From the NCBI RefSeq assembly GCF_041886205.1, contig NZ_CP169030.1: a stretch of DNA of 64,000 nt. One strand, given 5' to 3'. The stretch is from Escherichia coli. Its GTDB lineage: Bacteria; Pseudomonadota; Gammaproteobacteria; Enterobacterales; Enterobacteriaceae. The notes beneath the pieces are model-generated. The model made no database searches. It was given only the letters and a program-made list of their open reading frames with translations, and was not told the DNA's origin. How positions within the stretch are numbered: position 1 is the stretch's first letter; each line of letters opens with the position of its first letter. The position numbers were made by a program, and so were the translations under genes. Of the stretch, positions 8,811 to 26,319 are shown piece by piece.

Positions 8811-9086
8811 CTACCTGTTTTCTCGTGTGTGCCACAGGCGCAATACATAAATAGTCTGGCCATTAAGTTCGTAACGGATTTCGTACTCGCCAGCAAAAAT
8901 CCGTCTGACCTCCCTGGGTTCAAACTGAAACAACTGTTCTCCCATACGTGGATGAGTTAACAGAATGACCGGTGCCTGTGTCAGGGATTGCACCGTTCTG
9001 GCGGCCGCAGGTTTACTGGCCAGCACCAGAAAATCATATAACCGCGCCAAATCAGAAAGCGCCTTACTGGTCCACTTCAGTTCCAT
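8811..9086 (-). CDS. RelE/ParE-family toxin
   Basis: 91 aa with typical RelE/ParE C-terminal signature; overlaps upstream antitoxin gene by 1 nt. Confidence 0.7.
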   Translation of the reverse strand: MELKWTSKALSDLARLYDFLVLASKPAAARTVQSLTQAPVILLTHPRMGEQLFQFEPREVRRIFAGEYEIRYELNGQTIYVLRLWHTRENR

Positions 9087-9370
9087 CAGCGTGGCACCGG
9101 TAACGGATTGTCAGTACTGAGGCTGTCCGCCCAGGCCTGTACAGCCTGATGGTCGATAACCTGTCCGGATGTCACATCGTCCAGGGCTTCCAGCGTCAGG
9201 CGATTACGCTCCTCCTCCTGGGCAAGCCATGCAGAAAGCGCCTGTTTGATAACCCAGCCCCGGGAGCGTTCCAGCCTGGCGGCCATCTGGTCGACTTTAT
9301 CAGCCATAGGTAATGGCACATGCGCGGTAATGACTTTTGTTGCTTGTGCACTATTGTTTTTCATTTGCAT
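9086..9370 (-). CDS. Antitoxin (RHH/ParD-like) of the RelE/ParE module
   Basis: 94-aa ORF immediately upstream of and overlapping the toxin gene. Confidence 0.6.
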   Translation of the reverse strand: MQMKNNSAQATKVITAHVPLPMADKVDQMAARLERSRGWVIKQALSAWLAQEEERNRLTLEALDDVTSGQVIDHQAVQAWADSLSTDNPLPVPR

Positions 9371-9465
9371 ATCCGATTAGTTGTTAATCATATTTAATCA
9401 TAGTGATTACATTCAGACCGAACAAGGCAAATAATGCGCATCTGCGCATGTAAGGCAGCATACGG

Positions 9466-9520
9466 AGGTTACATGTAACACAGGTGTAAAACCGCCAAAG
9501 CCCGGCGTAAGCCGGTACGG
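9466..9520. repeat. Copy 1 of ~55-bp imperfect direct repeat (GGTTACATGT ... GTAAAACCGCC-AAGCCCGGCGTAAGCCGGTACGG) with internal CCGGC-GTAA-GCCGG hairpin
   Basis: Near-identical sequence recurs at 31651-31707 in the same orientation. Confidence 0.5.
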
Positions 9521-9566
9521 TCGTCCGAATATCACCAGTCCCACTCCGGCCCTGCGAGGCCATGTG

Positions 9567-9604
9567 GGGGGAACCGCAGAATTCGGAAAAAATCGTACGC
9601 TAAG
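9567..9604. repeat. Left 38-bp terminal inverted repeat of the Tn1721-like transposon
   Basis: GGGGGAACCGCAGAATTCGGAAAAAATCGTACGCTAAG. Confidence 0.8.
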
Positions 9605-9755
9605 CTAACGGTGTTCTCGTGACAGCTCTTTGACTAGGCTTTCTAAGGCCATTCTGATAGCCCTGACTTCCTGAAAAGCCATGGCTAAAATTTGTGCGGC
9701 TAAAAGGGATAACCGATGGTAAAGTAAGTTATCCCTGTCGAGATACTGAAAAGCG

Positions 9756-11333
9756 TTATCCTCGTTTTTCCCAAAACTGTTTTGCCAGTTCGCTCAGAGC
9801 GCTAGTTAACTGAGCGACAGATTTCGCACTTTGCAAATTATTCTGCCCGGTCTGTACATTGGTATCAGCAGCATCGCGTATATTGATAATACTGCGGTTT
9901 ATGTCTTCACTTACTGCTCCCTGCTGCTCGACCGCAGTCGCTATTTGCGCGTTCATGTCGGTAATTTCGTTAACGCGTTGGCCAATTCCATCAAGAGCTG
10001 TAGCTGCTTCCTCTGCGTGAGCTACACTCGTGTGCGCTTGCCGACTACTTTGCTCCATGACTGTAACAGCGGATTGCGCTCGCTCTTGTAGAGCGCTGAT
10101 CATGCTTTGAATATCCGTTGTCGATTGCTGTGTGCGAGCAGCAAGACTGCGAACCTCATCGGCGACAACAGCAAAACCACGCCCCTGCTCACCAGCACGC
10201 GCGGCCTCAATTGCTGCGTTGAGTGCCAACAAATTCGTTTGCTCGGCGATCCCTCGTATAACGTCAAGAACTTTTGATATCTCGTTACTTTGACCTTCAA
10301 GCTCATGAATAACCTGAGTGGCTTGCCTAATTTCACCTTCAAGGGCAGTGATTGACTGGCTTGTGTGGGCTACCAGACGCTGGCCAGATGCCGTCTCAGT
10401 GTCTGCTCTTCCGGCCGCATCTGCAGCATGCTGTGCATTGCTCGCAACCTCTTGAATGCTTGCCACCATTTGGTTTACTGCCGTTGCTATTTGATCTGTC
10501 TCTGCCTGCTGCTCAACTGTAAGTACATTGCTTGACTCAATATCCTTTAGTAGGCCTCGGGTGTGTTCGCTAAGCCGATTTGATGCATCACCTATGCGAC
10601 CTACTATGGCGCCTGTTTCAGCTTGCATCATTCGTAAAGCAAACTCTATTTGGCCAAACTCATCGGTGCGCCCAGTGTAGAGGGATTGACTTAATGGGTT
10701 ATTGGAAATATTCTTGGCTCTTTCAACCAGTCTTCCAAGAGGAGAGAGAATAGCCAAAACACTAACAGAGCTTAAGCTTCCTGACATTAAAGTGGCTAAC
10801 AATAAGCTGCTTATTGATGTATCAGTAAGCATGCCGGCAGCCATTGCGCTTGATATAATACTACCCCATATGAGCAAGAGTATTTTCACGGAAAAGCTAG
10901 CAGCCAATTTCGGCCTCGCGGCCTTCCCGCTTCTCAATTGAGCATATAATTTTTCCGCAGCCAAAACCTGCTCAGGTTCAGGCTTGGTCCTTACAGACTG
11001 GTATTCAACAATCGAACCATTCTTAGCTATTGGCGTTACATAAGCACTTACCCAATAGTGGTCGCCATTTTTACAGCGATTTTTTACTAGCCCCATCCAT
11101 GAGCGGCCAGATTTTAATGTACTCCACATATGCTCAAATGCAGCAGGCGGCATATCTGGGTGTCTTACGATGTTGTGAGGCTGGCCTAATAGTTCTTCCT
11201 CAGTGAAACCACTGATTTTAATGAAGTCAGGATTAACGTACGTGATATGGCTTTGAGGGGAGGTAGTCGAAAGAATATTGGCATCTTTTGGGAGTTCTAA
11301 GTTTCGACCCGTCACTGGTAAATTCTGGCGCAT
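9756..11333 (-). CDS. Methyl-accepting chemotaxis protein-like protein with PAS domain (Tn1721 orfI-type cargo)
   Basis: 525 aa; N-terminal PAS-like region, central TM segments, C-terminal MCP signalling domain ([31 protein letters not shown]). Confidence 0.8.
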
Positions 11334-11620
11334 AAGAACCTCAAGGGTTGGCTGTTTTATTTTATTGTTTTCGGCATTAAGCCCAATTTCTTGAGCGTTA
11401 CGATAAAGCTAGCATGGAAACGATAGGTGCAAGCAAGTTAAGGGTTGCATCGCGCATGTCAATCTAGGCTATACCCTAACTTGATGTCAGGCAGGGCCGC
11501 GCCGCTTCGTCAGAATAGAGTCTGCTTTCCCATTTTTTGACACATGCCCGCGAAGGTTATAGATTTCAGCCTGACAGAAATGGGCTTTGAGGCACAACGG
11601 AACAGAAAGTGCACTTAAGC

Positions 11621-11625
11621 CGCCT
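11621..11625. repeat. 5-bp target-site duplication (CGCCT) flanking IRt of the integron
   Basis: CGCCT immediately outside IRt; the same pentamer lies immediately outside the second IRi at 22464-22468. Confidence 0.6.
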
Positions 11626-11650
11626 TGTCATTTTCAGAAGACGACTGCAC
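11626..11650. repeat. IRt (25-bp terminal inverted repeat at tni end of Tn402-like integron)
   Basis: TGTCATTTTCAGAAGACGACTGCAC. Confidence 0.8.
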
Positions 11651-11766
11651 CAGTTGATTGGGCGTAATGGCTGTTGTGCAGCCAGCTCCTGACAGTTCAA
11701 TATCAGAAGTGATCTGCACCAATCTCGACTATGCTCAATACTCGTGTGCACCAAAGCGAGGTGAGC

Positions 11767-13446
11767 ATGGCGACGGACACCCCACGGATTCCAGAACAAG
11801 GCGTGGCCACTCTGCCTGATGAGGCTTGGGAGCGTGCGCGCCGTCGTGCGGAGATCATCAGTCCGTTGGCGCAGTCGGAGACGGTCGGGCACGAAGCGGC
11901 CGATATGGCGGCTCAGGCGCTGGGCTTGTCTCGGCGCCAGGTATACGTTCTGATCCGGCGTGCCCGGCAAGGCAGCGGCCTCGTGACGGATCTGGTGCCC
12001 GGCCAGTCCGGTGGAGGTAAAGGTAAGGGGCGCTTGCCGGAACCGGTCGAGCGCGTCATCCACGAGCTACTGCAAAAGCGGTTCCTGACCAAGCAGAAGC
12101 GCAGCCTAGCGGCCTTTCACCGCGAAGTCACTCAGGTGTGCAAGGCTCAAAAACTGCGAGTGCCGGCGCGCAATACCGTGGCCTTACGGATCGCTAGCCT
12201 TGACCCGCGCAAGGTCATCCGCCGGCGGGAAGGCCAGGATGCCGCTCGTGACCTACAAGGTGTGGGCGGCGAGCCTCCTGCCGTGACCGCGCCGCTGGAG
12301 CAGGTGCAGATAGACCATACGGTCATCGACCTGATCGTGGTCGATGACCGCGACCGGCAACCTATTGGCCGCCCGTACCTGACCCTCGCCATCGACGTGT
12401 TCACCCGCTGCGTGCTCGGCATGGTCGTCACGCTGGAAGCGCCGTCTGCCGTTTCGGTTGGCCTGTGCCTCGTGCATGTCGCCTGCGACAAGCGCCCTTG
12501 GCTGGAAGGACTGAACGTGGAAATGGATTGGCAGATGAGCGGCAAGCCCTTGCTGCTCTACCTAGACAACGCGGCCGAGTTCAAGAGCGAGGCCCTGCGC
12601 CGGGGTTGCGAGCAGCATGGCATCCGGCTGGACTATCGCCCGCTGGGACAGCCGCACTATGGCGGCATCGTGGAACGGATCATCGGCACGGCGATGCAGA
12701 TGATTCACGACGAACTGCCGGGAACGACCTTCTCCAACCCTGACCAGCGCGGCGACTACGATTCCGAAAACAAGGCCGCCCTGACGCTGCGCGAGCTAGA
12801 GCGCTGGCTCACATTGGCGGTCGGCACCTACCACGGTTCGGTGCACAACGGCCTGCTCCAACCGCCGGCCGCGCGCTGGGCCGAGGCCGTGGCGCGTGTC
12901 GGCGTACCGGCCGTCGTCACACGCGCTACTTCGTTCCTGGTCGATTTTCTGCCGATCCTCCGGCGCACGCTGACCCGCACCGGCTTTGTCATCGACCACA
13001 TCCACTACTACGCCGATGCGCTCAAGCCGTGGATTGCGCGGCGTGAACGCTGGCCGTCCTTTCTGATCCGGCGCGATCCGCGCGACATCAGCCGTATCTG
13101 GGTCCTGGAACCGGAGGGACAGCATTACCTGGAAATTCCCTACCGTACCTTGTCGCATCCGGCTGTCACCCTCTGGGAACAACGGCAGGCGCTGGCGAAA
13201 CTGCGGCAGCAAGGGCGCGAACAGGTGGATGAGTCGGCGCTGTTCCGCATGATCGGCCAGATGCGTGAGATTGTGACCAGCGCGCAGAAGGCCACACGCA
13301 AGGCGCGGCGTGACGCGGATCGCCGCCAGCACCTCAAGACATCAGCTCGGCCGGACAAGCCCGTTCCGCCGGATACGGATATTGCCGACCCGCAGGCAGA
13401 CAACTTGCCACCCGCCAAACCGTTCGACCAGATTGAGGAGTGGTAG
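11767..13446 (+). CDS. tniA: TniA transposase (Tn402/Tn5053 family, DDE)
   Basis: 559 aa starting MATDTPRIPEQG; ORF-track start at 11731 is an upstream in-frame Met. Confidence 0.9.
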   Translation: MATDTPRIPEQGVATLPDEAWERARRRAEIISPLAQSETVGHEAADMAAQALGLSRRQVYVLIRRARQGSGLVTDLVPGQSGGGKGKGRLPEPVERVIHELLQKRFLTKQKRSLAAFHREVTQVCKAQKLRVPARNTVALRIASLDPRKVIRRREGQDAARDLQGVGGEPPAVTAPLEQVQIDHTVIDLIVVDDRDRQPIGRPYLTLAIDVFTRCVLGMVVTLEAPSAVSVGLCLVHVACDKRPWLEGLNVEMDWQMSGKPLLLYLDNAAEFKSEALRRGCEQHGIRLDYRPLGQPHYGGIVERIIGTAMQMIHDELPGTTFSNPDQRGDYDSENKAALTLRELERWLTLAVGTYHGSVHNGLLQPPAARWAEAVARVGVPAVVTRATSFLVDFLPILRRTLTRTGFVIDHIHYYADALKPWIARRERWPSFLIRRDPRDISRIWVLEPEGQHYLEIPYRTLSHPAVTLWEQRQALAKLRQQGREQVDESALFRMIGQMREIVTSAQKATRKARRDADRRQHLKTSARPDKPVPPDTDIADPQADNLPPAKPFDQIEEW

Positions 13447-13448
13447 CC

Positions 13449-14357
13449 GTGGACGAATATCCCATCATCGACCTGTCCCACCTGCTGCCGGCGGCCCAGG
13501 GCTTGGCCCGTCTTCCGGCGGACGAGCGCATCCAGCGCCTTCGCGCCGACCGCTGGATCGGCTATCCGCGCGCAGTCGAGGCGCTGAACCGGCTGGAAGC
13601 CCTTTATGCGTGGCCAAACAAGCAACGCATGCCCAACCTGCTGCTGGTTGGCCCGACCAACAATGGCAAGTCGATGATCGTCGAGAAGTTCCGCCGCACC
13701 CACCCGGCCAGCTCCGACGCCGACCAGGAGCACATCCCGGTGTTGGTCGTGCAGATGCCGTCCGAGCCGTCCGTGATCCGCTTCTACGTCGCGCTGCTCG
13801 CCGCGATGGGCGCGCCGCTGCGCCCACGCCCACGGTTGCCGGAAATGGAGCAACTGGCTCTGGCACTGCTGCGCAAGGTCGGCGTGCGCATGCTGGTGAT
13901 CGACGAGCTGCACAACGTGCTGGCCGGCAACAGCGTCAACCGCCGGGAATTCCTCAACCTGCTGCGCTTCCTCGGCAACGAACTGCGCATCCCGTTGGTT
14001 GGGGTAGGCACGCGCGACGCCTACCTAGCCATCCGCTCCGATGACCAGTTGGAAAATCGCTTCGAGCCGATGATGCTGCCGGTATGGGAGGCCAACGACG
14101 ATTGCTGCTCACTGCTGGCCAGCTTCGCCGCTTCGCTCCCGCTGCGCCGGCCTTCCCCAATTGCCACGCTGGACATGGCTCGCTACCTGCTCACACGCAG
14201 CGAGGGCACCATAGGGGAACTGGCGCACTTGCTGATGGCGGCGGCCATCGTCGCCGTGGAGAGCGGCGAGGAAGCGATCAACCATCGCACACTCAGCATG
14301 GCCGTTTACACCGGACCCAGCGAGCGGCGGCGGCAATTCGAGCGGGAACTGATGTGA
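13449..14357 (+). CDS. tniB: TniB NTP-binding transposition protein
   Basis: Walker A VGPTNNGKS, probable GTG start at 13449 giving MDEYPIIDL. Confidence 0.85.
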   Translation: MDEYPIIDLSHLLPAAQGLARLPADERIQRLRADRWIGYPRAVEALNRLEALYAWPNKQRMPNLLLVGPTNNGKSMIVEKFRRTHPASSDADQEHIPVLVVQMPSEPSVIRFYVALLAAMGAPLRPRPRLPEMEQLALALLRKVGVRMLVIDELHNVLAGNSVNRREFLNLLRFLGNELRIPLVGVGTRDAYLAIRSDDQLENRFEPMMLPVWEANDDCCSLLASFAASLPLRRPSPIATLDMARYLLTRSEGTIGELAHLLMAAAIVAVESGEEAINHRTLSMAVYTGPSERRRQFERELM

Positions 14358-15571
14358 AGCCTGCGCCGCGCTGGCCGCTGCATCCCGCCCCGAAAGAAGG
14401 CGAGGCGCTGTCCTCATGGCTCAACCGCGTGGCCCTTTGCTATCACATGGAGGAGCCCGACCTGCTGGAGCACGATCTTGGTCACGGCCAGGTCGATGAC
14501 CTGGACACCGCGCCACCACTCTCGCTGCTGGCGTTGCTTTCCCAGCGGAGCGGCATCGAGCTGGACCGGCTGCGCTGTATGAGTTTCGCCGGATGGGTGC
14601 CTTGGCTACTGGACAGCCTTGATGACCAGATTCCAGACGCCTTGGAAACCTATGCGTTTCAGCTCTCGGTGTTGCTGCCAAGACTCCGCCGTAAGACGCG
14701 ATCCATCACGAGCTGGCGTGCCTGGCTGCCCAGCCAGCCGATAAACCGCGCCTGTCCGCTCTGCCTGAGCGATCCGGAGAACCAAGCCGTACTGCTCGCG
14801 TGGAAGCTGCCCCTGATGCTGAGCTGCCCGCTGCATGGCTGCTGGCTGGAATCCTATTGGGGCGTGCCAGGGCGGTTTCTCGGCTGGGAGAACGCCGACG
14901 CCGAACCGCGCACCGCCAGCGACGCGATTGCGGCGATGGACCAGCGTACCTGGCAGGCACTGACAACCGGTCACGTGGAGCTGCCGCGCCGACGCATCCA
15001 CGCCGGATTGTGGTTTCGACTTCTTCGCACGCTGCTCGATGAGCTGAACACCCCGCTTTCCGCGTGCGGAACCTGCGCGGGGTATCCCCGCCAAGTCTGG
15101 GAAGGCTGCGGGCATCCGCTGCGTGCTGGGCAAAGTCTGTGGCGACCGTATGAAACCCTGAATCCGATAGTACGGTTACAGATGCTGGAGGCGGCGGCAA
15201 CGGCAATCAGCTTGATTGAGGTGAGGGACATCAGCCCGCCAGGCGAGCAGGCAAAGCTATTCTGGTCCGAGCCCCAAACCGGGTTCACCAGTGGCCTGCC
15301 GACGAAAGCGCCGAAGCCCGAGCCCATCAATCACTGGCAGCGTGCAGTCCAGGCCATCGACGAGGCCATCATTGAAGCGCGACACAACCCCGAGACGGCA
15401 CGCTCGCTGTTCGCGTTGGCTTCCTATGGTCGGCGCGATCCCGCTTCCTTGGAACGGTTGCGCGCCACCTTCGTGAAGGAAGGCATCCCGCCGGAATTTC
15501 TGTCACATTACCTGCCTGATGCACCCTTTGCATGTCTTAAACAAAATGACGGGTTAAGTGACAAATTTTGA
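14354..15571 (+). CDS. tniQ: TniQ transposition protein
   Basis: 405-aa frame starting at GTG overlapping tniB stop (VKPAPRWPLHPAPKEGEALSSWLNR); the ORF-track entry 14084-15571 is an upstream extension of this frame. Confidence 0.8.
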   Translation: MKPAPRWPLHPAPKEGEALSSWLNRVALCYHMEEPDLLEHDLGHGQVDDLDTAPPLSLLALLSQRSGIELDRLRCMSFAGWVPWLLDSLDDQIPDALETYAFQLSVLLPRLRRKTRSITSWRAWLPSQPINRACPLCLSDPENQAVLLAWKLPLMLSCPLHGCWLESYWGVPGRFLGWENADAEPRTASDAIAAMDQRTWQALTTGHVELPRRRIHAGLWFRLLRTLLDELNTPLSACGTCAGYPRQVWEGCGHPLRAGQSLWRPYETLNPIVRLQMLEAAATAISLIEVRDISPPGEQAKLFWSEPQTGFTSGLPTKAPKPEPINHWQRAVQAIDEAIIEARHNPETARSLFALASYGRRDPASLERLRATFVKEGIPPEFLSHYLPDAPFACLKQNDGLSDKF

Positions 15572-15617
15572 CGGATAGAGCTTTCCGGCTCACACTGTCA
15601 CATAATCGAACGTATAC

Positions 15618-16256
15618 GTGACGGGTGAAAAGGTGCTGATCGGCTACATGCGGGTATCGAAGGCGGACGGATCCCAGTCCACCAATTTGCAACGCGATGC
15701 GCTCATCGCCGCTGGTGTGAGCCTTGCGCACCTTTACGAGGATCTGGCCTCGGGCAGGCGCGATGATCGCCCAGGGTTGGCTGCTTGCCTGAAGGCGCTT
15801 CGTGAAGGGGACACGCTGATCGTGTGGAAGCTCGATCGGCTTGGCCGTGATCTGCGCCACCTGATCAACACCGTGCACGACCTAACTGCGCGTAGCGTGG
15901 GCCTGAAGGTCCTGACCGGTCACGGTGCGGCGGTCGACACGACGACTGCCGCCGGCAAGCTTGTGTTCGGTATTTTTGCCGCGCTGGCCGAGTTCGAGCG
16001 TGAGTTGATTTCCGAGCGAACAGTCGCTGGACTTATCTCGGCGCGCGCTCGCGGCAGGAAAGGGGGGCGCCCCTTCAAGATGACCGCCGCCAAGCTACGC
16101 CTGGCGATGGCCAGCATGGGGCAACCGGAAACCAAGGTGGGCGATCTCTGCGAAGAACTCGGGATTACCCGGCAGACGCTCTACCGGCACGTGTCGCCCA
16201 AGGGCGAACTGCGGCCAGACGGCGTAAAGCTGCTCTCCCTCGGTTCAGCCGCATAA
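15618..16256 (+). CDS. tniR: TniR/TniC serine resolvase of Tn402-like element
   Basis: Serine recombinase motifs (IGYMRVSKADGSQ; C-terminal HTH); exact start uncertain. Confidence 0.8.
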   Translation: MTGEKVLIGYMRVSKADGSQSTNLQRDALIAAGVSLAHLYEDLASGRRDDRPGLAACLKALREGDTLIVWKLDRLGRDLRHLINTVHDLTARSVGLKVLTGHGAAVDTTTAAGKLVFGIFAALAEFERELISERTVAGLISARARGRKGGRPFKMTAAKLRLAMASMGQPETKVGDLCEELGITRQTLYRHVSPKGELRPDGVKLLSLGSAA

Positions 16257-16353
16257 ATGGAGGCGACCTGGAACGGGGCGCTGTTCAGTGCGGCAACGAT
16301 CCGATTACCGGTGTCGACCCAGAGCAGCCGTAGAGCTTTTGGGAAAGCTGTCG

Positions 16354-16448
16354 TTCAACGTTTGACGTGAGGGGCCGCCGTAGCGGCGAAGCCGCGAAGG
16401 GAACCCGCAAGCGCAGCTTGTGGGCGGTCCCTCTCGACGGAATGGTTA
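16354..16448 (-). other. Probable attC recombination site of the qac gene cassette
   Basis: Minus-strand inverse core ATCTAAC (plus 16441-16448) and core GTTGAAC (plus 16354-16360) bracket ~95 bp downstream of the qac stop; boundaries approximate. Confidence 0.4.
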
Positions 16449-16460
16449 GATGCGACCGTT

Positions 16461-16793
16461 TTAGTGAACACTTGCCTTAGATAGCAAGTTGAGCACAGCA
16501 ACGCCGCTGATAATGAAGCCGACACCAACAAATCCCCACATATCTAGTTTTTGACCATGCAAAACCCATGCAATCGCAGTGACCAAGACGATCCCGAGGC
16601 CCGACCAAACTGCGTAGGCGATTCCAACAGGAATCGATTTGAGTGTCAGCGACAGGAAATAAAAAGCAGCAGCGTATCCCGCTACGACGATAAAAGACGG
16701 TACTAACCTAGTAAAGCCCTCACTAGACTTGAGCGCAGAGGTTGCAATGACCTCAAAAATAATGGCCGTAGCCAGAAATAACCAATTTTTCAA
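16461..16793 (-). CDS. Small multidrug resistance (SMR) quaternary ammonium compound efflux protein, qacH/qacL-type gene cassette
   Basis: 110-aa frame [27 protein letters not shown]... with probable TTG start; the ORF-track entry 16461-17102 is an artefactual upstream extension through attI1. Confidence 0.75.
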
Positions 16794-16888
16794 AATATTT
16801 CTCCATGGAGTTCCGCGAAGAAATTTTAGGTTCGATTTAAGAAAAAAAACAGTCTTGTTGCTGGCCGAAATTTGTGCGCACAGCAAAG

Positions 16889-16965
16889 CATCTAACTTTG
16901 TTTTAGGGCGACTGCCCTGCTGCGTAACATCGTTGCTGCTCCATAACATCAAACATCGACCCACG
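16889..16965. other. attI1 site (copy 1) with cassette junction GTTAGATGC on minus strand
   Basis: Sequence CCCTAAAACAAAGTTAGATGC (minus strand) directly upstream of intI1; boundaries approximate. Confidence 0.6.
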
Positions 16966-17031
16966 GCGTAACGCGCTTGCTGCTTGGATGCCCGAGGCAT
17001 AGACTGTACAAAAAAACAGTCATAACAAGCC

Positions 17032-18045
17032 ATGAAAACCGCCACTGCGCCGTTACCACCGCTGCGTTCGGTCAAGGTTCTGGACCAGTTGCGTGAGCGC
17101 ATACGCTACTTGCATTACAGTTTACGAACCGAACAGGCTTATGTCCACTGGGTTCGTGCCTTCATCCGTTTCCACGGTGTGCGTCACCCGGCAACCTTGG
17201 GCAGCAGCGAAGTCGAGGCATTTCTGTCCTGGCTGGCGAACGAGCGCAAGGTTTCGGTCTCCACGCATCGTCAGGCATTGGCGGCCTTGCTGTTCTTCTA
17301 CGGCAAGGTGCTGTGCACGGATCTGCCCTGGCTTCAGGAGATCGGAAGACCTCGGCCGTCGCGGCGCTTGCCGGTGGTGCTGACCCCGGATGAAGTGGTT
17401 CGCATCCTCGGTTTTCTGGAAGGCGAGCATCGTTTGTTCGCCCAGCTTCTGTATGGAACGGGCATGCGGATCAGTGAGGGTTTGCAACTGCGGGTCAAGG
17501 ATCTGGATTTCGATCACGGCACGATCATCGTGCGGGAGGGCAAGGGCTCCAAGGATCGGGCCTTGATGTTACCCGAGAGCTTGGCACCCAGCCTGCGCGA
17601 GCAGCTGTCGCGTGCACGGGCATGGTGGCTGAAGGACCAGGCCGAGGGCCGCAGCGGCGTTGCGCTTCCCGACGCCCTTGAGCGGAAGTATCCGCGCGCC
17701 GGGCATTCCTGGCCGTGGTTCTGGGTTTTTGCGCAGCACACGCATTCGACCGATCCACGGAGCGGTGTCGTGCGTCGCCATCACATGTATGACCAGACCT
17801 TTCAGCGCGCCTTCAAACGTGCCGTAGAACAAGCAGGCATCACGAAGCCCGCCACACCGCACACCCTCCGCCACTCGTTCGCGACGGCCTTGCTCCGCAG
17901 CGGTTACGACATTCGAACCGTGCAGGATCTGCTCGGCCATTCCGACGTCTCTACGACGATGATTTACACGCATGTGCTGAAAGTTGGCGGTGCCGGAGTG
18001 CGCTCACCGCTTGATGCGCTGCCGCCCCTCACTAGTGAGAGGTAG
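17032..18045 (+). CDS. intI1: Class 1 integron integrase IntI1 (copy 1)
   Basis: 337-aa tyrosine recombinase [49 protein letters not shown]... Confidence 0.95.
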
Positions 18046-18222
18046 GGCAGCGCAAGTCAATCCTGGCGGATTCACTACCCCTGCGCGAAGGCCATCGGTG
18101 CCGCATCGAACGGCCGGTTGCGGAAAGTCCTCCCTGCGTCCGCTGATGGCCGGCAGCAGCCCGTCGTTGCCTGATGGATCCAACCCCTCCGCTGCTATAG
18201 TGCAGTCGGCTTCTGACGTTCA

Positions 18223-18247
18223 GTGCAGCCGTCTTCTGAAAACGACA
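18223..18247. repeat. IRi (25-bp inverted repeat at intI1 end), copy 1, internal
   Basis: GTGCAGCCGTCTTCTGAAAACGACA; followed by TTTGA rather than the CGCCT seen outside IRt. Confidence 0.8.
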
Positions 18248-18329
18248 TTTGAACCGGGAACCTTCCCTTTTTGGCTAGGCGTGAAACAATGGTCATTTTC
18301 CCTATACCCAAAATGACCAGGAGGCCCGC

Positions 18330-18428
18330 ATGAAAGTCGCACGCATCTACCTGCGCGTGAGCACGGAGGAACAAGACCTAAGCCGGCAGGATGCCATCGT
18401 GGAGAGCTTAAATAAGACCGTCCCGTAA
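18330..18428 (+). pseudogene. Serine recombinase (resolvase) N-terminal fragment, truncated after ~27 codons by the 88-bp repeat
   Basis: MKVARIYLRVSTEEQDLSRQDAIVES matches the catalytic-serine N-terminus of resolvases; frame then runs into repeat sequence and stops. Confidence 0.5.
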
Positions 18429-18495
18429 ATTTCAGCCGAATCCGACAAAAAGGCGTGAAGATTTCCTTTAAATAGAGAGACCGAAGGTCATCCTT
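18408..18495. repeat. 88-bp direct repeat, copy A, flanking the tet(M) segment
   Basis: TTAAATAAGACCGTCCCGTAAATTTCAGCCGAATCCGACAAAAAGGCGTGAAGATTTCCTTTAAATAGAGAGACCGAAGGTCATCCTT, identical at 20999-21086. Confidence 0.85.
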
Positions 18496-18648
18496 TTCCT
18501 AAAAAAGGGGGGGGCCATGGTTCCAAGATGTAAAATCGAGGGCTAATTCAGGCTATACTTGAACTATCCTTAATGGAATCTTTAGCCAGCGGTATCAACG
18601 AAGCAAGAAACATCGAAGACTAATTAAAAGAATCCATACATAACGGAA

Positions 18649-18693
18649 AGAGCCGATAAAATGAGATTGTATTAATCTCATTTTATCGGCTCT
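18649..18693. terminator. Long perfect hairpin (19-bp stem) at the 3' end of the small ORF downstream of tet(M)
   Basis: AGAGCCGATAAAATGAGATT-gtat-TAATCTCATTTTATCGGCTCT. Confidence 0.45.
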
Positions 18694-18850
18694 GCGTCTT
18701 TGCGTCTGGCTCTGTAATCGCAGTTACTTTGAACTGCTTTATTTCAATTAAATTTTCTTGTCTGCATTTCGGACAATAGAGGGGGAATTTTTTTAATTCA
18801 GTATCTTCCCTTATCTTTAATCGTGTTTTATTTCCACATACAGGACACAA
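18683..18850 (-). CDS. Small Cys-rich zinc-ribbon-like protein (~55 aa), Tn916 orf6-like, downstream of tet(M)
   Basis: Minus-strand frame CPVCGNKTRLKIREDTELKKFPLYCPKCRQENLIEIKQFKVTAITEPDAKTQSR with TTG/GTG start; below ORF-track length cutoff. Confidence 0.4.
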   Translation of the reverse strand: MCPVCGNKTRLKIREDTELKKFPLYCPKCRQENLIEIKQFKVTAITEPDAKTQSR

Positions 18851-18968
18851 TATCCACTTGTAGTTTATAATAACTATCTCCTCCTTTACACTTTAATTCA
18901 AATCTTTATTAAAAAATATTTCATCTTATTTAACAAGAAACCATATTTATATAACAACATAAAATACA

Positions 18969-20888
18969 CTAAGTTATTTTATTGAACATATATCGTACTT
19001 TATCTATCCGACTATTTGGACGACGGGGCTGGCAAACAGGTTCACCGGTAGTAACATGGTACCCTTTTAACTCTGTTAAACAAACACTACGTCCATTTGT
19101 AAAGAAAGTTAAATCACTACGATATTCTTGAATACACCGAGCAGGGATTTCTCCACTAAGAATGACCTCATTATTTTTCAATTGAGTGTCTACGATGTTC
19201 GCACAATATTTAGGAGCATCGTTGTATGCTCGTGAAAGATATTCCTGTGGCGCATAAATTTTAAAACTAAGATATGGCTCTAACAATTCTGTTCCAGCTT
19301 TTTTTAAGACTTGTTCCAATACAATAGGAGCAAGCATCCGAAAATCTGCTGGGGTACTAACAGGGCTATAGTATAAGCCATACTTAAAACAGATTTTACA
19401 GTCCGTCACATTCCAACCATACAATCCTTGTTCACAGCCATAGCGTATCCCTTCCATAACTGCATTTTGAAATGATTGATTTAAGTATCCAAGAGAAACC
19501 GAGCTCTCATACTGCATTCCACTTCCCAACGGAAGCGGTGATACAGATAAACCAATGGAAGCCCAGAAAGGATTTGGCGGCACTTCGATGTGAATGGTAT
19601 ATTCTGCATTTTTTAACGGTCTCTCCATATAAATGACTGTAGGCTCTTTTAGTTCTATCTCCACATGATACTTTTCTTGCAACAGTGCACTAATCACTTC
19701 CATTTGTACTTTCCCTAAGAAAGAAAGTATAATTTCATGTGTCGTAGAATCCACGTAATATCGTAGAAGCGGATCACTATCTGAGATTTCCAAAAGGGCA
19801 TCAAGCAACATTTCTCTCTGTTCAGGTTTACTCGGTTCAACAGTTGTTTGTAGTAGAGGGTGCGGATTTTCAATCTTTTTTCTCTGTGGCAATAGTTTTG
19901 TATCTCCAAGAACACTATTTAACTTCAAAAACTCATTTTGCAAAATAACAATTTCCCCGGAATAAGCCTTATCGATTTTACATAATTCACCATTTATTGA
20001 AGTATACATTTCTGTAATTTTTATTTTTTCCTTTTCCGATATTCTAACCGAATCTCGCAAATGCAGTACGCCACTATAAAGACGTATATATGCAAGACGT
20101 TGTCTTTTTTTTGTATATTCAATTTTGAAAACATTTCCGCAAAGTTCAGACTGACCTCGATGTGTTGATGAATAAAATTTATTCGTAATCACTTCTATAA
20201 GGTTATCAATCCCTATATTGTTTTTTGCACTTCCATGATAAAGAGGGAACAGAGAACAATTCTGAAATCTTATGCTTTCCTCTTGTTCGAGTTCCAATGC
20301 TTCTAATGATTTACCGGACATATATTTCTCTAAAAGGTCATCGTTTCCCTCTATTACCGTATCCCATTGTTCAGATTCGGTAAAGTTCGTCACACACATA
20401 TTAGGATACAGTTCTACCTTCTGTTTGATTACAATTTCGGCAGAAAGTTTCTCTTTAATATCCTGATAAACCGTTGATAAATCAATTCCATTTTGGTCAA
20501 TCTTATTGATAAAAAAGATTGTGGGAATCCCCATTTTCCTAAGTGCATGAAATAATATACGAGTTTGTGCTTGTACGCCATCTTTTGCAGAAATCAGTAG
20601 AATTGCCCCATCTAAAACTGATAATGAACGATATACTTCTGCTAAGAAATCCATATGTCCTGGCGTGTCTATGATGTTCACCTTCGTATTTTCCCACTGA
20701 AAAGAGGTTATTCCTGTCTGAATTGTAATTCCTCTCTGACGTTCTAAAAGCGTATTATCCGTCCTCGTTGTACCTTTGTCCACGCTTCCTAATTCTGTAA
20801 TCGCTCCACTGTTATATAATAAGCTTTCTGTTAAGGTAGTTTTTCCCGCATCAACATGAGCTAAAACTCCAATATTAATAATTTTCAT
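18969..20888 (-). CDS. tet(M): Tetracycline resistance ribosomal protection protein Tet(M)
   Basis: 639 aa starting [30 protein letters not shown] (translational GTPase motifs); the ORF-track frame begins 5 codons upstream. Confidence 0.95.
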
Positions 20889-20903
20889 GTGATTTTCCTC
20901 CAT

Positions 20904-20990
20904 TCAAAAGCCCAAAAGGGCATAAAAATCCCAGTGATAAATACTCTTATCACTGGGATTTTTATGCATAACCATAGGCATACAAAGCAT
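20904..20990 (-). CDS. tet(M) leader peptide (28 aa) of the transcriptional attenuator
   Basis: MLCMPMVMHKNPSDKSIYHWDFYALLGF immediately upstream of tet(M), as in Tn916. Confidence 0.7.
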   Translation of the reverse strand: MLCMPMVMHKNPSDKSIYHWDFYALLGF

Positions 20991-20998
20991 ACAGATAT

Positions 20999-21086
20999 TT
21001 AAATAAGACCGTCCCGTAAATTTCAGCCGAATCCGACAAAAAGGCGTGAAGATTTCCTTTAAATAGAGAGACCGAAGGTCATCCTT
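20999..21086. repeat. 88-bp direct repeat, copy B, flanking the tet(M) segment
   Basis: Identical to 18408-18495, same orientation. Confidence 0.85.
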
Positions 21087-21134
21087 GAAGAAGGAGTCCT
21101 CGGTGAGATTCAGAATGCCGAACACCGTCACCCT
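21087..21134 (-). pseudogene. sul1: sul1 5' fragment (codons ~2-17 only), joined on one side to the 88-bp repeat and on the other to truncated attI1
   Basis: Minus strand reads (V)TVFGILNLTEDSFF, the N-terminus of Sul1 dihydropteroate synthase, lacking its ATG and everything after codon ~17. Confidence 0.7.
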
Positions 21135-21200
21135 GCTGCGTAACATCGTTGCTGCTCCATAACATCAAACATCGACCCACGGCGTAACGCGCTTGCTGCT
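21133..21200. other. attI1 (copy 2), truncated: lacks the GTTAGATGC crossover end
   Basis: Sequence identical to copy 1 from CCCTGCTGCGTAACATCG onward, but the cassette-proximal ~25 bp are replaced by the sul1 fragment. Confidence 0.6.
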
Positions 21201-21247
21201 TGGATGCCCGAGGCATAGACTGTACAAAAAAACAGTCATAACAAGCC

Positions 21248-22261
21248 ATGAAAACCGCCACTGCGCCGTTACCACCGCTGCGTTCGGTCAAGGTTCTGGA
21301 CCAGTTGCGTGAGCGCATACGCTACTTGCATTACAGCTTACGAACCGAACAGGCTTATGTCCACTGGGTTCGTGCCTTCATCCGTTTCCACGGTGTGCGT
21401 CACCCGGCAACCTTGGGCAGCAGCGAAGTCGAGGCATTTCTGTCCTGGCTGGCGAACGAGCGCAAGGTTTCGGTCTCCACGCATCGTCAGGCATTGGCGG
21501 CCTTGCTGTTCTTCTACGGCAAGGTGCTGTGCACGGATCTGCCCTGGCTTCAGGAGATCGGAAGACCTCGGCCGTCGCGGCGCTTGCCGGTGGTGCTGAC
21601 CCCGGATGAAGTGGTTCGCATCCTCGGTTTTCTGGAAGGCGAGCATCGTTTGTTCGCCCAGCTTCTGTATGGAACGGGCATGCGGATCAGTGAGGGTTTG
21701 CAACTGCGGGTCAAGGATCTGGATTTCGATCACGGCACGATCATCGTGCGGGAGGGCAAGGGCTCCAAGGATCGGGCCTTGATGTTACCCGAGAGCTTGG
21801 CACCCAGCCTGCGCGAGCAGCTGTCGCGTGCACGGGCATGGTGGCTGAAGGACCAGGCCGAGGGCCGCAGCGGCGTTGCGCTTCCCGACGCCCTTGAGCG
21901 GAAGTATCCGCGCGCCGGGCATTCCTGGCCGTGGTTCTGGGTTTTTGCGCAGCACACGCATTCGACCGATCCACGGAGCGGTGTCGTGCGTCGCCATCAC
22001 ATGTATGACCAGACCTTTCAGCGCGCCTTCAAACGTGCCGTAGAACAAGCAGGCATCACGAAGCCCGCCACACCGCACACCCTCCGCCACTCGTTCGCGA
22101 CGGCCTTGCTCCGCAGCGGTTACGACATTCGAACCGTGCAGGATCTGCTCGGCCATTCCGACGTCTCTACGACGATGATTTACACGCATGTGCTGAAAGT
22201 TGGCGGTGCCGGAGTGCGCTCACCGCTTGATGCGCTGCCGCCCCTCACTAGTGAGAGGTAG
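21248..22261 (+). CDS. intI1: Class 1 integron integrase IntI1 (copy 2, identical protein)
   Basis: Identical 337-aa translation to copy 1; one silent nucleotide difference noted. Confidence 0.95.
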
Positions 22262-22438
22262 GGCAGCGCAAGTCAATCCTGGCGGATTCACTACCCCTGC
22301 GCGAAGGCCATCGGTGCCGCATCGAACGGCCGGTTGCGGAAAGTCCTCCCTGCGTCCGCTGATGGCCGGCAGCAGCCCGTCGTTGCCTGATGGATCCAAC
22401 CCCTCCGCTGCTATAGTGCAGTCGGCTTCTGACGTTCA

Positions 22439-22463
22439 GTGCAGCCGTCTTCTGAAAACGACA
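22439..22463. repeat. IRi, copy 2 (outer end of integron), followed by CGCCT target duplication
   Basis: GTGCAGCCGTCTTCTGAAAACGACA then CGCCT at 22464-22468. Confidence 0.8.
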
Positions 22464-22485
22464 CGCCTTCAACCAAGGAGACATC

Positions 22486-23046
22486 GTGCAGGGGCACCGC
22501 ATCGGCTACGTCCGGGTCAGCAGCTTTGACCAGAACCCGGAACGCCAGCTGGAACAAACCCAGGTGAGCAAGGTGTTCACCGACAAGGCATCGGGCAAGG
22601 ACACCCAGCGCCCCCAGCTCGAAGCGCTGCTGAGCTTCGTCCGCGAAGGCGATACAGTGGTGGTGCACAGCATGGATCGGCTGGCCCGCAACCTCGATGA
22701 CCTGCGTCGCTTGGTACAGAAGCTGACTCAGCGCGGCGTGCGCATCGAGTTCCTGAAGGAGGGCCTGGTGTTCACTGGCGAGGACTCGCCGATGGCCAAC
22801 CTGATGCTGTCGGTGATGGGGGCCTTCGCTGAGTTCGAGCGCGCCCTGATCCGCGAGCGGCAGCGTGAGGGCATCGCCTTGGCCAAGCAGCGTGGCGCGT
22901 ACCGGGGCCGCAAGAAAGCCCTGTCCGATGAGCAGGCTGCTACCCTGCGGCAGCGAGCGACGGCCGGCGAGCCCAAGGCGCAGCTTGCCCGCGAGTTCAA
23001 CATCAGCCGGGAAACCCTCTACCAGTACCTCCGCACGGACGACTGA
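22486..23046 (+). CDS. tnpR: TnpR resolvase (Tn21/Tn1721 subfamily)
   Basis: 186-aa serine recombinase MQGHRIGYVRVSSFDQNPERQ... Confidence 0.9.
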   Translation: MQGHRIGYVRVSSFDQNPERQLEQTQVSKVFTDKASGKDTQRPQLEALLSFVREGDTVVVHSMDRLARNLDDLRRLVQKLTQRGVRIEFLKEGLVFTGEDSPMANLMLSVMGAFAEFERALIRERQREGIALAKQRGAYRGRKKALSDEQAATLRQRATAGEPKAQLAREFNISRETLYQYLRTDD

Positions 23047-23049
23047 CAC

Positions 23050-26016
23050 ATGCCGCGTCGCTTGATCCTCTCGGCCACGGAGCGGGACACCCTGCTTGCG
23101 CTGCCGGAAAGCCAGGATGACCTGATCCGCTACTACACCTTCAACGACTCCGACCTGTCGCTGATCCGCCAGCGACGCGGCGACGCCAACCGCCTCGGCT
23201 TCGCCGTGCAGCTCTGCCTGCTGCGCTACCCCGGTTACGCGCTGGGAACCGACAGCGAGCTGCCCGAGCCGGTCATCCTGTGGGTGGCGAAGCAAGTCCA
23301 GGCCGAGCCGGCGAGCTGGGCAAAGTACGGCGAGCGCGACGTGACCCGTCGCGAGCATGCCCAGGAACTGCGCACCTACCTGCAACTGGCCCCGTTCGGC
23401 CTGTCCGACTTCCGCGCCCTGGTGCGCGAGCTAACCGAGCTGGCCCAGCAGACCGACAAAGGCTTGCTGCTGGCCGGTCAGGCCCTGGAGAGCCTACGGC
23501 AGAAACGACGCATCCTGCCGGCGCTGAGCGTGATTGACCGGGCCTGCTCGGAAGCCATTGCGCGAGCCAATCGGCGGGTCTACCGCGCCCTGGTCGAACC
23601 ACTCACGGACTCGCATCGGGCCAAGCTGGACGAGCTGTTGAAGCTCAAGGCCGGCAGCAGCATCACCTGGTTGACCTGGCTGCGCCAGGCACCGCTGAAA
23701 CCCAACTCTCGGCACATGCTGGAACACATCGAGCGGCTGAAGACATTTCAGTTGGTGGACTTGCCCGAAGGCCTGGGCCGGCACATCCACCAGAACCGCC
23801 TGCTCAAGCTGGCCCGCGAGGGTGGGCAGATGACGCCCAAAGACCTCGGTAAGTTCGAGCCGCAGCGCCGCTACGCGACCCTGGCCGCCGTGGTGCTGGA
23901 GAGCACCGCGACCGTGATCGATGAGCTGGTCGATCTGCATGACCGCATCCTGGTCAAGCTGTTCAGCGGCGCGAAGCACAAGCATCAGCAGCAGTTCCAG
24001 AAGCAGGGCAAGGCGATCAACGACAAGGTGCGCCTGTACTCCAGGATCGGCCAGGCGCTGCTGGAAGCGAAGGAAAGCGGCAGCGACCCCTATGCCGCCA
24101 TCGAGGCGGTGATTCCCTGGGACGAGTTCACCGAGAGCGTCAGCGAGGCCGAGCTGCTGGCCCGGCCGGAAGGCTTCGACCACCTGCACCTGGTCGGCGA
24201 GAACTTCGCCACCCTGCGCCGTTACACGCCGGCCTTGCTGGAGGTGCTGGAACTGCGCGCCGCGCCGGCCGCGCAAGGCGTGCTGGCAGCCGTGCAGACC
24301 CTGCGTGAGATGAACGCCGACAACCTGCGCAAGGTGCCGGCCGATGCACCCACGGCCTTCATCAAGCCGCGCTGGAAGCCGCTGGTGATCACCCCGGAAG
24401 GCCTCGACCGGAAATTCTACGAAATCTGCGCCCTGTCCGAGCTGAAGAACGCCCTGCGCTCCGGCGACATCTGGGTCAAGGGCTCGCGGCAGTTCCGCGA
24501 CTTCGACGACTACCTGCTGCCGGCCGAGAAGTTCGCCGCACTCAAGCGCGAGCAGGCCCTGCCCCTGGCGATCAACCCGAACAGCGACCAGTACCTGGAA
24601 GAGCGTTTGCAGCTGCTGGACGAGCAGTTGGCCACCGTCACCCGCCTGGCCAAGGACAACGAGCTGCCCGATGCCATCCTCACCGAGTCAGGGCTGAAAA
24701 TCACCCCGCTGGATGCGGCGGTGCCGGATCGGGCGCAGGCGCTGATCGACCAAACCAGCCAGTTACTGCCGCGCATCAAGATCACCGAACTGCTGATGGA
24801 CGTGGACGACTGGACGGGCTTCAGCCGCCACTTCACCCACTTGAAGGACGGGGCCGAGGCCAAAGACAGGACGTTGCTGCTGTCCGCAATCCTCGGTGAT
24901 GCGATCAACCTCGGGCTGACCAAGATGGCCGAGTCGAGCCCCGGCCTGACCTACGCCAAGCTGTCCTGGCTGCAAGCCTGGCACATCCGCGACGAAACCT
25001 ATTCGGCGGCCTTGGCCGAGCTGGTCAACCACCAGTATCGCCACGCCTTTGCCGCCCACTGGGGCGACGGCACGACCTCATCCTCCGATGGCCAGCGCTT
25101 CCGCGCGGGTGGCCGGGGCGAGAGCACCGGGCACGTCAACCCGAAGTACGGTAGCGAGCCGGGACGGCTGTTCTATACCCATATCTCCGACCAGTACGCG
25201 CCGTTCAGCACCCGCGTGGTGAATGTCGGCGTCCGCGATTCCACCTATGTGCTCGACGGCCTGCTGTACCACGAGTCCGACCTGCGGATCGAGGAGCACT
25301 ACACCGACACGGCCGGCTTCACCGATCACGTCTTTGCCCTGATGCACCTGCTAGGCTTCCGCTTCGCGCCGCGCATCCGCGACCTCGGCGAAACCAAGCT
25401 GTACGTGCCGCAGGGCGTGCAAGCCTACCCGACGTTGCGCCCGCTGATCGGCGGCACCCTGAACATCAAGCACGTGCGTGCCCACTGGGACGACATCCTG
25501 CGCCTGGCCAGCTCGATCAAGCAGGGCACCGTCACCGCCTCGCTGATGCTGCGCAAGCTCGGCAGCTACCCGCGCCAGAACGGACTGGCCGTGGCCCTGC
25601 GCGAGCTGGGCCGGATCGAGCGCACGCTGTTCATCCTGGACTGGCTGCAAAGTGTTGAACTGCGCCGCCGCGTGCATGCCGGCCTGAACAAAGGTGAGGC
25701 GCGCAACTCGCTGGCCAGGGCGGTGTTCTTCAACCGCCTTGGGGAAATCAGGGATCGGAGCTTCGAGCAGCAGCGCTACCGGGCCAGCGGCCTCAACCTG
25801 GTGACGGCGGCTATCGTGCTGTGGAACACGGTGTACCTGGAACGCGCCACCCAGGGGTTGGTCGAGGCCGGCAAGCCGGTGGACGGCGAGCTGCTGCAAT
25901 TCCTGTCGCCGCTGGGCTGGGAGCACATCAACCTAACCGGCGATTACGTCTGGCGGCAGAGCCGCAGACTGGAAGACGGGAAGTTTCGGCCCTTACGGAT
26001 GCCCGGAAAACCTTAG
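23050..26016 (+). CDS. tnpA: TnpA transposase (Tn3 family, Tn21/Tn1721 subfamily)
   Basis: 988-aa ORF ending inside the terminal inverted repeat. Confidence 0.9.
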
Positions 26017-26049
26017 CGTACGATTTTTTCCGAATTCTGCGGGCTCCCC
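26012..26049. repeat. Right 38-bp terminal inverted repeat of the Tn1721-like transposon
   Basis: Reverse complement reads GGGGAGCCCGCAGAATTCGGAAAAAATCGTACGCTAAG. Confidence 0.8.
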
Positions 26050-26190
26050 TTGTTTGTACGATTCGATATCGATACTGCGTAATGGCCGGTACTTCCCTGT
26101 ACCCAGCTTAAGATTATTACGCCAGACATCATCCCCATTAAGATTGATATGCTCCCAGCCCAACGGCGAAAGGTGAGTGCAGTTGGTCAT
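26050..26190 (-). pseudogene. 3' remnant of a second Tn3-family tnpA, inverted and abutting the outer end of the transposon IR
   Basis: Minus-strand translation [31 protein letters not shown] parallels the TnpA C-terminus [31 protein letters not shown]. Confidence 0.5.
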
Positions 26191-26319
26191 TAATCGGGAG
26201 CTTTTTTCGTTTCAGGGACTCAATGGCTCTTTCTATGTATACCGTGTTCCATAATTTTTCACTCCGTTGAAAACGGAGTACGTGGCAATCGTATCAGTGA
26301 TACAGTTGAGGCAATTGAC

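Follow-up and report, generated by a model that had tools for sequence, protein, structure and literature searches.

The deletions beside the Tn3-family element Tn1331delta::IS26 in the pAAC154 lineage are a published precedent for the structure reported here: flanking stretches of 171 bp and 1,259 bp were removed, one copy of the target duplication was lost, and the authors ascribed these deletions to intramolecular replicative transposition in cis (He et al., 2016, mBio, PMC5142620). The transposons Tn1721 and Tn1722 share their terminal inverted repeats (IRs), in which EcoRI sites are present, mcp (orfI), tnpR and tnpA, and Tn1721 additionally carries a tetR-tet(A)-pecM/delta-tnpA module of 5,488 bp. 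In Tn21/Tn1696-type structures, a Tn21-subgroup transposon carries a Tn402-family class 1 integron that has inserted in its res region.

The window analyzed here is a stretch of 64,000 nt from the Escherichia coli contig NZ_CP169030.1. At 9567-26049 it contains a Tn1721/Tn1722-type transposon of the Tn3 family (Tn21 subgroup) on an IncF plasmid. Like Tn1331delta::IS26, this transposon has intact ends, a short flank has been removed beside it (212 bp), and the 5-bp duplication has lost one of its copies. The plasmids from before and after the event were recovered in the Tn1331delta::IS26 study, whereas the present comparison is only between an empty site and the end product.

The resident transposon and its integron

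The left 38-bp IR (IRL; 9567-9604, plus strand; GGGGGAACCGCAGAATTCGGAAAAAATCGTACGCTAAG) is identical to the IRLs of Tn1721 copies on other plasmids, and the right 38-bp IR (IRR; 26012-26049, minus strand) reads GGGGAGCCCGCAGAATTCGGAAAAAATCGTACGCTAAG as its reverse complement. The two are complementary at 35 of 38 positions, and they have the length (~38 bp), the GGGG start and the ACGCTAAG end of Tn3-family IRs. Next to the IRL, mcp (orfI of Tn1721; 9756-11333, minus strand) encodes a PAS methyl-accepting chemotaxis protein with the Pfam domains MCPsignal, PAS_3 and HAMP, and it is annotated in the same way in E. coli JML285_P2. The tnpR gene (22486-23046, plus strand; Pfam Resolvase and HTH_7) encodes a serine resolvase and adjoins tnpA (23050-26016, plus strand), the product of which is a large Tn3-type DDE transposase of 988 amino acid residues (Pfam DUF4158 and DDE_Tnp_Tn3, E = 3e-155). 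In the relatives, this tnpA is annotated by PGAP as “TnAs1 family”; its stop codon falls within the IRR. Over 15.5 kb, the transposon matched the annotated Tn1721 derivative of JML285_P2 at 99.99% identity, and its near-identity to Tn1721/Tn1722 was judged via this annotated plasmid.

Unlike Tn1721, the window copy lacks the tetR-tet(A)-pecM/delta-tnpA module and therefore has the Tn1722-length form. The module would have been lost later in the window lineage, when tnpA recombined homologously with the 1789-bp tnpA 3′ segment that is duplicated in Tn1721; a collapsed repeat could still account for its absence. A further difference from both Tn1721 and Tn1722 is a 10.8-kb Tn402-like class 1 integron with tet(M) in the res region. 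It was delimited at 11626-22463 by its 25-bp IRs, its flanks, its internal repeats and the annotation of JML285_P2, and it is bracketed by a perfect 5-bp duplication, CGCCT (11621-11625 and 22464-22468). Its location between mcp and tnpR is presumably the place of the Tn1721 res site. The order of its parts is IRt, tniA-tniB-tniQ-tniR, a qacG2 cassette, intI1, IRi, a tet(M) block and a second intI1-IRi copy. The 25-bp IRi/IRt and the 5-bp duplication are shared with the Tn21/Tn1696-type structures. Unlike in those structures, the host is Tn1721 rather than a mer transposon, and the integron has a full tni module, a qacG2 cassette and a duplicated intI1 end that brackets tet(M). A literature search for the JML285 structure, or for Tn1721 with tet(M), intI1 and qacG, returned nothing specific to the present structure.

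Unmatched flanks and the loss of 212 bp

The initial annotation had described the 5 bp outside the two IRs as different, and this was borne out: ATGTG (9562-9566) on the left and TTGTT (26050-26054) on the right form no direct repeat, so the window copy lacks the 5-bp target duplication of the Tn3 family, in this respect also differing from Tn1721/Tn1722. Such a duplication is a trait of a fresh insertion and not of the element itself. Neither IR tip has lost a base, and the junctions are ambiguous by at most 1 bp; the junction string observed in the window is GGGCTCCCCTTGTTTGTACG. Both window junctions were also found in JML285_P2 and CP063715.1, the only two other plasmids that have them, both with the full Tn1721. 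An assembly artefact was ruled out by their presence in these two independent records.

The left flank, ending in ATGTG, is intergenic DNA of the IncF backbone (9371-9566) downstream of RHH/ParE toxin-antitoxin genes (8811-9370), and it is collinear with the transposon-free plasmid pMB3176_2 up to position 5788 of the latter. In pMB3176_2 the right flank starts at position 6001, and the 212 bp between the two flanks consist of 170 bp of backbone, the 38-bp IR of a tnpA remnant and 4 bp. The window has lost these 212 bp exactly between two intact transposon tips, and the missing duplication is due to this adjacent deletion. The earlier view that the present ends come from separate events followed by deletion stands insofar as one simple insertion is impossible, 212 bp being gone relative to pMB3176_2.

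The arrangement in pMB3176_2 is ancestral. The empty site was found whole in 14 PLSDB plasmids and in parts in thousands, and many plasmids without Tn1721 at this site have the remnant complete with its IR and bounded identically on the inner side. The ETEC plasmid p948 shares the backbone as well, and this homology stops precisely where the remnant IR has its outer tip. In an Rfam scan of the empty-site region, no family was matched.

The inverted tnpA remnant beyond the right junction

To the right of the IRR, the minus strand had been read as encoding, in inverted orientation, the C-terminus of a Tn3-family TnpA, and the nucleotide, protein and Pfam matches agree with this reading. As proposed, a second Tn3-family element does contain the right junction, which falls in the last codons of a tnpA remnant and 4 bp inside the remnant IR. 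The extent had been underestimated: instead of ~30 residues ending at 26190, the remnant comprises ~68 codons (26050 to ~26254, minus strand) of the 3′ end of tnpA from a different Tn21-subgroup element, with a frameshift near 26172-26180, according to the nucleotide match, blastx, Pfam and tblastn.

The nucleotide comparison with the 3′ end of the resident tnpA gave an inverted 96-nt match at 72% and a second match of 28 nt at 82%, and blastx aligned residues 924-948 and 952-983 of the resident TnpA (combined E = 7e-15). The remnant covered positions 347-388 of the 389 positions of Pfam DDE_Tnp_Tn3 (PF01526; E = 9.8e-11; 41.5 bits, cutoff 24), and tblastn against tnpA genes of other plasmids gave E values of about 1e-31. 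In a tblastn search with a repaired 73-aa peptide, no named parent element emerged from the listed matches outside the 80-95% identity bands. Among the matches listed, and excluding the remnant itself, the nearest tnpA 3′ ends had ~77% protein identity; one was on the IncHI1 plasmid pCP131, where it is likewise a remnant and has IS4321 as a neighbour, and the other on a Yersinia plasmid.

The remnant had also been described as lacking its own IR. This holds for the window, where the last 2 codons, the stop codon and the 38-bp IR are missing, but not for the transposon-free relatives, in which the IR lies 4 bp past the present junction and was thus among the deleted DNA. In pMB3176_2, this IR (GGGGTCCGCC...ACGCTAAG, 38 bp) is located at 5959-5996 and includes the TAG stop codon; a 38-bp IR starting with GGGG and a tnpA stop within it are as in the decayed Tn21-subgroup IR/tnpA remnants of IncF plasmids. 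In other plasmids the same remnant has either received an IS4321 insertion within its IR or been truncated by IS26. The copy of IS4321 within the remnant IR of Klebsiella pneumoniae pS234-4 fits the known target of IS4321/IS5075 (PMC8269217).

Recombination of the resident transposon with the neighbouring Tn3-family element had been suggested as a source of the right end. Both tnpA 3′ ends do contain a conserved block (96 nt at 72% plus 54 nt at 81%), but the homologous blocks are inverted, and an exchange between them would invert rather than delete the DNA. The homologous block does not reach the breakpoint, which is at the IR tip. Moreover, the resident tnpA and the IRR are 100% Tn1721-like to the very end, and the remnant sequence to the right of the junction is identical in the window and in the empty-site plasmids. 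Given an overall identity of only ~62%, the inverted orientation, and breakpoints exactly at the outer tips of Tn1721-type IRs, which point to transposase action and not to homologous exchange, this origin is exceedingly improbable and already effectively refuted. Nor is a causal role of the remnant supported: it already exists in many plasmids without Tn1721 at this site and is a bystander target, not a partner.

Origin of the deletion

The structure probably arose by one ordinary insertion followed by a transposase-mediated intramolecular transposition in cis, which would have deleted the 212 bp and one copy of the duplication. A Tn1721-type transposon with the integron already aboard would have inserted once into the IncF backbone, at ATGTG or TTGTT, two sites that are 212 bp apart and adjoin the pre-existing dead Tn3-family remnant. 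Its own transposase may then have carried out intramolecular replicative transposition into the other site by the cis pathway, excising the 212 bp, and with them one of the original target-duplication copies, as a non-replicating circle and leaving one intact transposon between unrelated flanks. The hallmarks of a cis deletion were observed in the window, namely an intact element, one unchanged flank, a loss exactly from the IR tip and the disappearance of one duplication copy. IR tips that are intact to the base are the pattern expected from transposase chemistry. Ordinary insertion behaviour is supported by normal duplications elsewhere, namely CGCCT at the window integron and the perfect 5-bp duplication AACAA of p1916D18-2, in which Tn1721 lies ~140 bp upstream on the same backbone. 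Transposition immunity in the Tn3 family should make an element less likely to transpose within the replicon that carries it, and this counts against the cis route.

Intermediates with a matched duplication were predicted to have the junctions IRR+ATGTGGCCTG and GCTGTTGTT+IRL (exact strings GGGCTCCCCATGTGGCCTGTCAGCG and CTAAGGCTGTTGTTGGGGGAACCGC). No such intermediate was found for either site with 300-bp queries against PLSDB and a set of 5,426 complete E. coli genomes, and searches of JGI metagenome contigs and GTDB species genomes for the predicted junctions as exact 25-mers were likewise negative. The intermediate structure that the initial annotation had proposed to seek in related plasmids was thus found in none of the four collections. 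The two-piece matches that were inspected (L006-L008) were rejected because they are paralogues, 80-83% identical to the backbone segment and set in unrelated surroundings; those in L011 and L012 were rejected as other contexts, judged by annotation alone. The plasmids L009 and L010 carry independent Tn1721 insertions at other positions.

A lack of intermediates with normal duplications is what would be predicted by a one-step origin, in which a single aberrant insertion had its ends attack 212 bp apart (non-concerted strand transfer) and the deletion came about with the insertion itself. A transposase-independent deletion that chanced to stop at the IR tip would be an alternative. However, the absence of intermediates is weak evidence, because even the window junctions are known from no more than 2-3 sequenced plasmids. 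There is no established Tn3-family precedent to cite for a one-step origin, and it is improbable that a random deletion would stop precisely where a 38-bp IR has its last base; the microhomology is only 0-1 bp. Both courses of events appear improbable. As the intermediates were not found, we infer the cis pathway, with the transposase as the maker of the deletion and the insertion as the earlier event, from the end product alone.

A product identical to the observed structure would also be obtained if two independent insertions in the same orientation, one at ATGTG and one at TTGTT, had occurred in sister plasmids and homologous or res/TnpR recombination had then deleted the 212 bp. Such recombination could draw on a functional resolvase gene and on 16 kb of homologous sequence, and repeat hits are conceivable given that Tn1721-type elements struck this backbone region independently elsewhere (L009, L010/L015). 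Yet three events would be needed instead of the two of the cis route, and an unusual integron/tet(M) derivative of at least 16.5 kb would have had to insert twice, in the same orientation, within 212 bp. PLSDB, the 5,426 E. coli genomes, the JGI contigs and the GTDB genomes yielded neither of the parental junctions, and no reciprocal product with a duplication either. We consider this course of events possible but unlikely. Its product does not differ from that of the cis deletion, and the site that was hit first cannot be read from the sequence.

With the cis deletion as the preferred reading, the structure is an ordinary, already documented by-product of Tn3-family transposition and represents no new mechanism or element type. 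The position of the right junction 4 bp inside a foreign IR, which is identical to the Tn1721 IR at 25-26 of 38 positions, together with the independent Tn1721-type hits on this short piece of backbone in other IncF plasmids, could mean that the target choice was non-random, the dead Tn21-type IR or a neighbouring structured intergenic element attracting the Tn1721 transposase rather than conferring immunity. This seems very doubtful; if it were true, dead transposon ends would be hotspots for new insertions and deletions.

The IncF multiresistance region would have been assembled from Tn1721, a Tn402-type integron and tet(M), in this order, followed by the adjacent 212-bp deletion and the loss of tet(A). 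The unmatched flanks and the 212-bp gap provide a lineage marker that the window so far has in common only with JML285_P2 and CP063715.1. For the family as a whole, a Tn3-family element without matching target duplications has usually undergone a secondary deletion mediated by the transposase.

The resident transposon and its nested integron

The resident transposon occupied positions 9567–26049 of the window and was bounded by 38-bp terminal inverted repeats (IRs) that matched at 35 of 38 positions (IRL, GGGGGAACCGCAGAATTCGGAAAAAATCGTACGCTAAG; reverse complement of IRR, GGGGAGCCCGCAGAATTCGGAAAAAATCGTACGCTAAG). It carried a PAS/MCP gene (mcp; 9756–11333, minus strand), a serine resolvase gene (tnpR; 22486–23046) and a Tn3-type transposase gene (tnpA; 23050–26016) encoding 988 amino acid residues, the stop codon of which was located within the right IR. 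Over 15.5 kb, the resident region and the Tn1721 derivative carried by the E. coli plasmid JML285_P2 (NZ_AP024116.1) shared 99.99% identity, and the element is a member of the Tn1721/Tn1722 group of the Tn3 family. The 5,488-bp tetR-tet(A)-pecM/ΔtnpA module of full Tn1721, present in JML285_P2 and CP063715.1, was absent from the window, which held the Tn1722-length form (window 24261–26049 compared with 15564–21050 of the JML285_P2 locus L002). This loss is consistent with homologous recombination across the 1,789-bp tnpA repeat; a collapsed repeat in the window assembly, a less interesting option, would give the same absence. An assembly artefact at the outer junctions was rejected, as two independent records, JML285_P2 and CP063715.1, shared both junctions with the window.

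A Tn402-like class 1 integron (11626–22463) was found between mcp and tnpR, in an integron-in-res arrangement resembling those of Tn21 and Tn1696. It contained a full tni module (tniABQR), a qacG2 cassette, a duplicated intI1 end and tet(M) (18969–20903, minus strand). The tet(M) block was bounded by 88-bp direct repeats (18408–18495 and 20999–21086), and the insert (18248–21130) was framed by two 1,333-bp direct copies of the attI1-intI1-IRi end (16915–18247 and 21131–22463). Right behind the first IRi, at 18248–18407, lay the 5′ end of a resolvase gene of foreign origin (MKVARIYLRVSTEEQDLSRQ...), which, together with the layout of the block, suggests that the tet(M) block was acquired through recombination with an integron belonging to a different transposon context.

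The integron was bracketed by a perfect 5-bp duplication, CGCCT (11621–11625 and 22464–22468), whereas the outer 5-bp flanks of the transposon were ATGTG and TTGTT, as the initial annotation had recorded, and thus formed no target duplication. A clean insertion signature was therefore retained on the inner element, and none on the outer transposon.

The tnpA remnant and the ancestral site

Directly outside the right IR, on the minus strand, the initial annotation had also recognized the inverted 3′ end of a related Tn3-family tnpA, and this remnant proved to be real. It aligned in inverted orientation with the resident tnpA 3′ end over 96 nt at 72% and 28 nt at 82% nucleotide identity, and blastx matched TnpA residues 924–948 and 952–983 in two reading frames (E = 7e-15), with a frameshift near 26172–26180. 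Pfam DDE_Tnp_Tn3 was matched at positions 347–388 of 389 (41.5 bits; cutoff, 24 bits), and tblastn to the tnpA genes of other plasmids gave E values of about 1e-31. Given the agreement of nucleotide and protein searches, a chance protein likeness does not explain the remnant. It is a tnpA C-terminus as described, but extends from 26050 to ∼26254, about 68 codons instead of ∼30 residues. Its inner end (∼26251–26257) fell where the tcu module, as shared with p417H-90, begins on the left (match from window 26251 onward), and truncation of the old transposon and arrival or rearrangement of the tcu module were probably one event. Salmonella IncHI plasmids shared the tricarballylate (tcuRABC) module only from about 26553.

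In IncF plasmids free of the transposon, such as pMB3176_2 (locus L001), the left flank ended at L001 position 5788 and the right flank (ttgtttgtacg...) began at 6001. The 212 bp between them, missing from the window, comprised 170 bp of backbone, the remnant's own 38-bp Tn3-family IR (GGGGTCCGCCTGGAAAAAGGAAAATATCCCACGCTAAG; L001 5959–5996) and 4 further bp; the deletion proposed in the initial annotation was thus borne out. The ancestral remnant had its stop codon inside its own IR, which is typical of the Tn21 subgroup. The complete empty site was present in 14 PLSDB plasmids, and parts of it in thousands. In p948 of ETEC H10407, the shared backbone stopped exactly at the remnant IR's outer tip, beyond which the sequences diverged. 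In K. pneumoniae pS234-4 (locus L004, 5559–5581), IS4321 was inserted within the remnant's 38-bp IR, the Tn21-type IR being a known target of IS4321/IS5075 (PMC8269217), and IS26 cut the remnant at a point 54 bp inward of the IR in numerous plasmids of E. coli and Klebsiella (e.g., pEC22-3; locus L003, 7651/7652). These observations show that the pMB3176_2 arrangement is ancestral, so that a dead transposon end had long resided in the backbone before Tn1721 and the window state, without the remnant IR, is derived. Recombination with the other Tn3-family element, also put forward initially, was rejected: the homologous blocks were inverted, overall identity was about 62%, the breakpoint did not fall within the homologous block, and the sequences to either side of the junction were 100% parental.

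A conserved backbone intergenic segment of about 300 nt was located downstream of RHH/ParE toxin–antitoxin genes (window 9425–9566; full copy, L001 5655–5958). It had 80–83% paralogues on other F-like plasmids, its plus-strand fold was more stable than those of shuffled sequences (z = −3.08), and no Rfam family was matched. The left transposon junction fell within the loop of a GGCC-ATGT-GGCC hairpin, and the right half of the segment was removed by the 212-bp deletion.

The right junction lay 4 bp inside the heterologous IR, 25–26 of whose 38 positions were identical to the Tn1721 IR, and independent Tn1721-type insertions were found at other positions in the IncF backbone neighbourhood of other plasmids (locus L009, AP026748.1; loci L010/L015, NZ_CP045999.1), one of them with a perfect AACAA duplication ∼140 bp upstream of the window's left junction. 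These repeated hits, a biased set from searches seeded with these very sequences, may reflect a regional hotspot or ascertainment bias. That the foreign IR and the repeatedly hit stretch would have had a targeting effect on Tn1721 seems most improbable.

Origin of the unmatched flanks

Both Tn1721 IR tips were intact to the base, and the missing DNA lay exactly between them, with a junction ambiguity of ≤1 bp. As a control, the Tn1721 copy that p1916D18-2 carries in this backbone, ∼140 bp farther upstream, had a perfect AACAA duplication; together with CGCCT around the integron, this shows that target duplications are ordinarily generated and retained. The simplest account, which we consider probable, comprises two events. 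A single ordinary insertion, at ATGTG or at TTGTT, would have been followed by intramolecular replicative transposition through the cis pathway into the remaining site, and the intervening DNA would have been freed as a non-replicating circle, along with a copy each of the transposon and the duplication. The identities of the elements, the exact 212-bp loss, the intact tips and the earlier presence of the remnant are direct observations; we infer both the involvement of the transposase and the order of events. He et al. (PMC5142620) inferred such a cis outcome for the Tn3-family Tn1331Δ::IS26, with 171-bp and 1,259-bp deletions and loss of one TTATA copy; as in the window, a short flanking deletion accompanied the loss of a duplication copy. 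Within 25 bp, the A+T content was 56% at TTGTT and 32% at ATGTG, a difference that at best hints very weakly at TTGTT being the more typical Tn3-family target.

An intermediate structure, which the initial annotation had suggested seeking among related plasmids, was not found. Neither predicted junction (IRR+ATGTGGCCTG... and ...GCTGTTGTT+IRL) was detected in 72,556 PLSDB plasmids, 5,426 complete E. coli genomes, JGI metagenome contigs or GTDB species-representative genomes. The apparent two-piece matches that were inspected were rejected: loci L006–L008 represented backbone-segment paralogues (80–83%) in different surroundings, and L011 and L012, judged by annotation only, also belonged to other contexts. 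Since the observed right junction itself occurred in only one of the 5,426 E. coli genomes, the lineage is a rare one, and little weight can be placed on the failure to find intermediates. Two independent insertions in the same orientation, one at each site, followed by homologous or res recombination, would yield an identical product, but three events would be needed and neither parental junction was found; we regard this course as unlikely. An aberrant insertion completed in a single step, or a deletion made without the transposase and ending by chance at the IR tip, would account for the data without any intermediate, and is judged improbable.

Loss of a short neighbouring segment, leaving flanks that do not match, has been documented for replicative elements, including those of the Tn3 family. 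No new mechanism is needed to account for the structure in the window.
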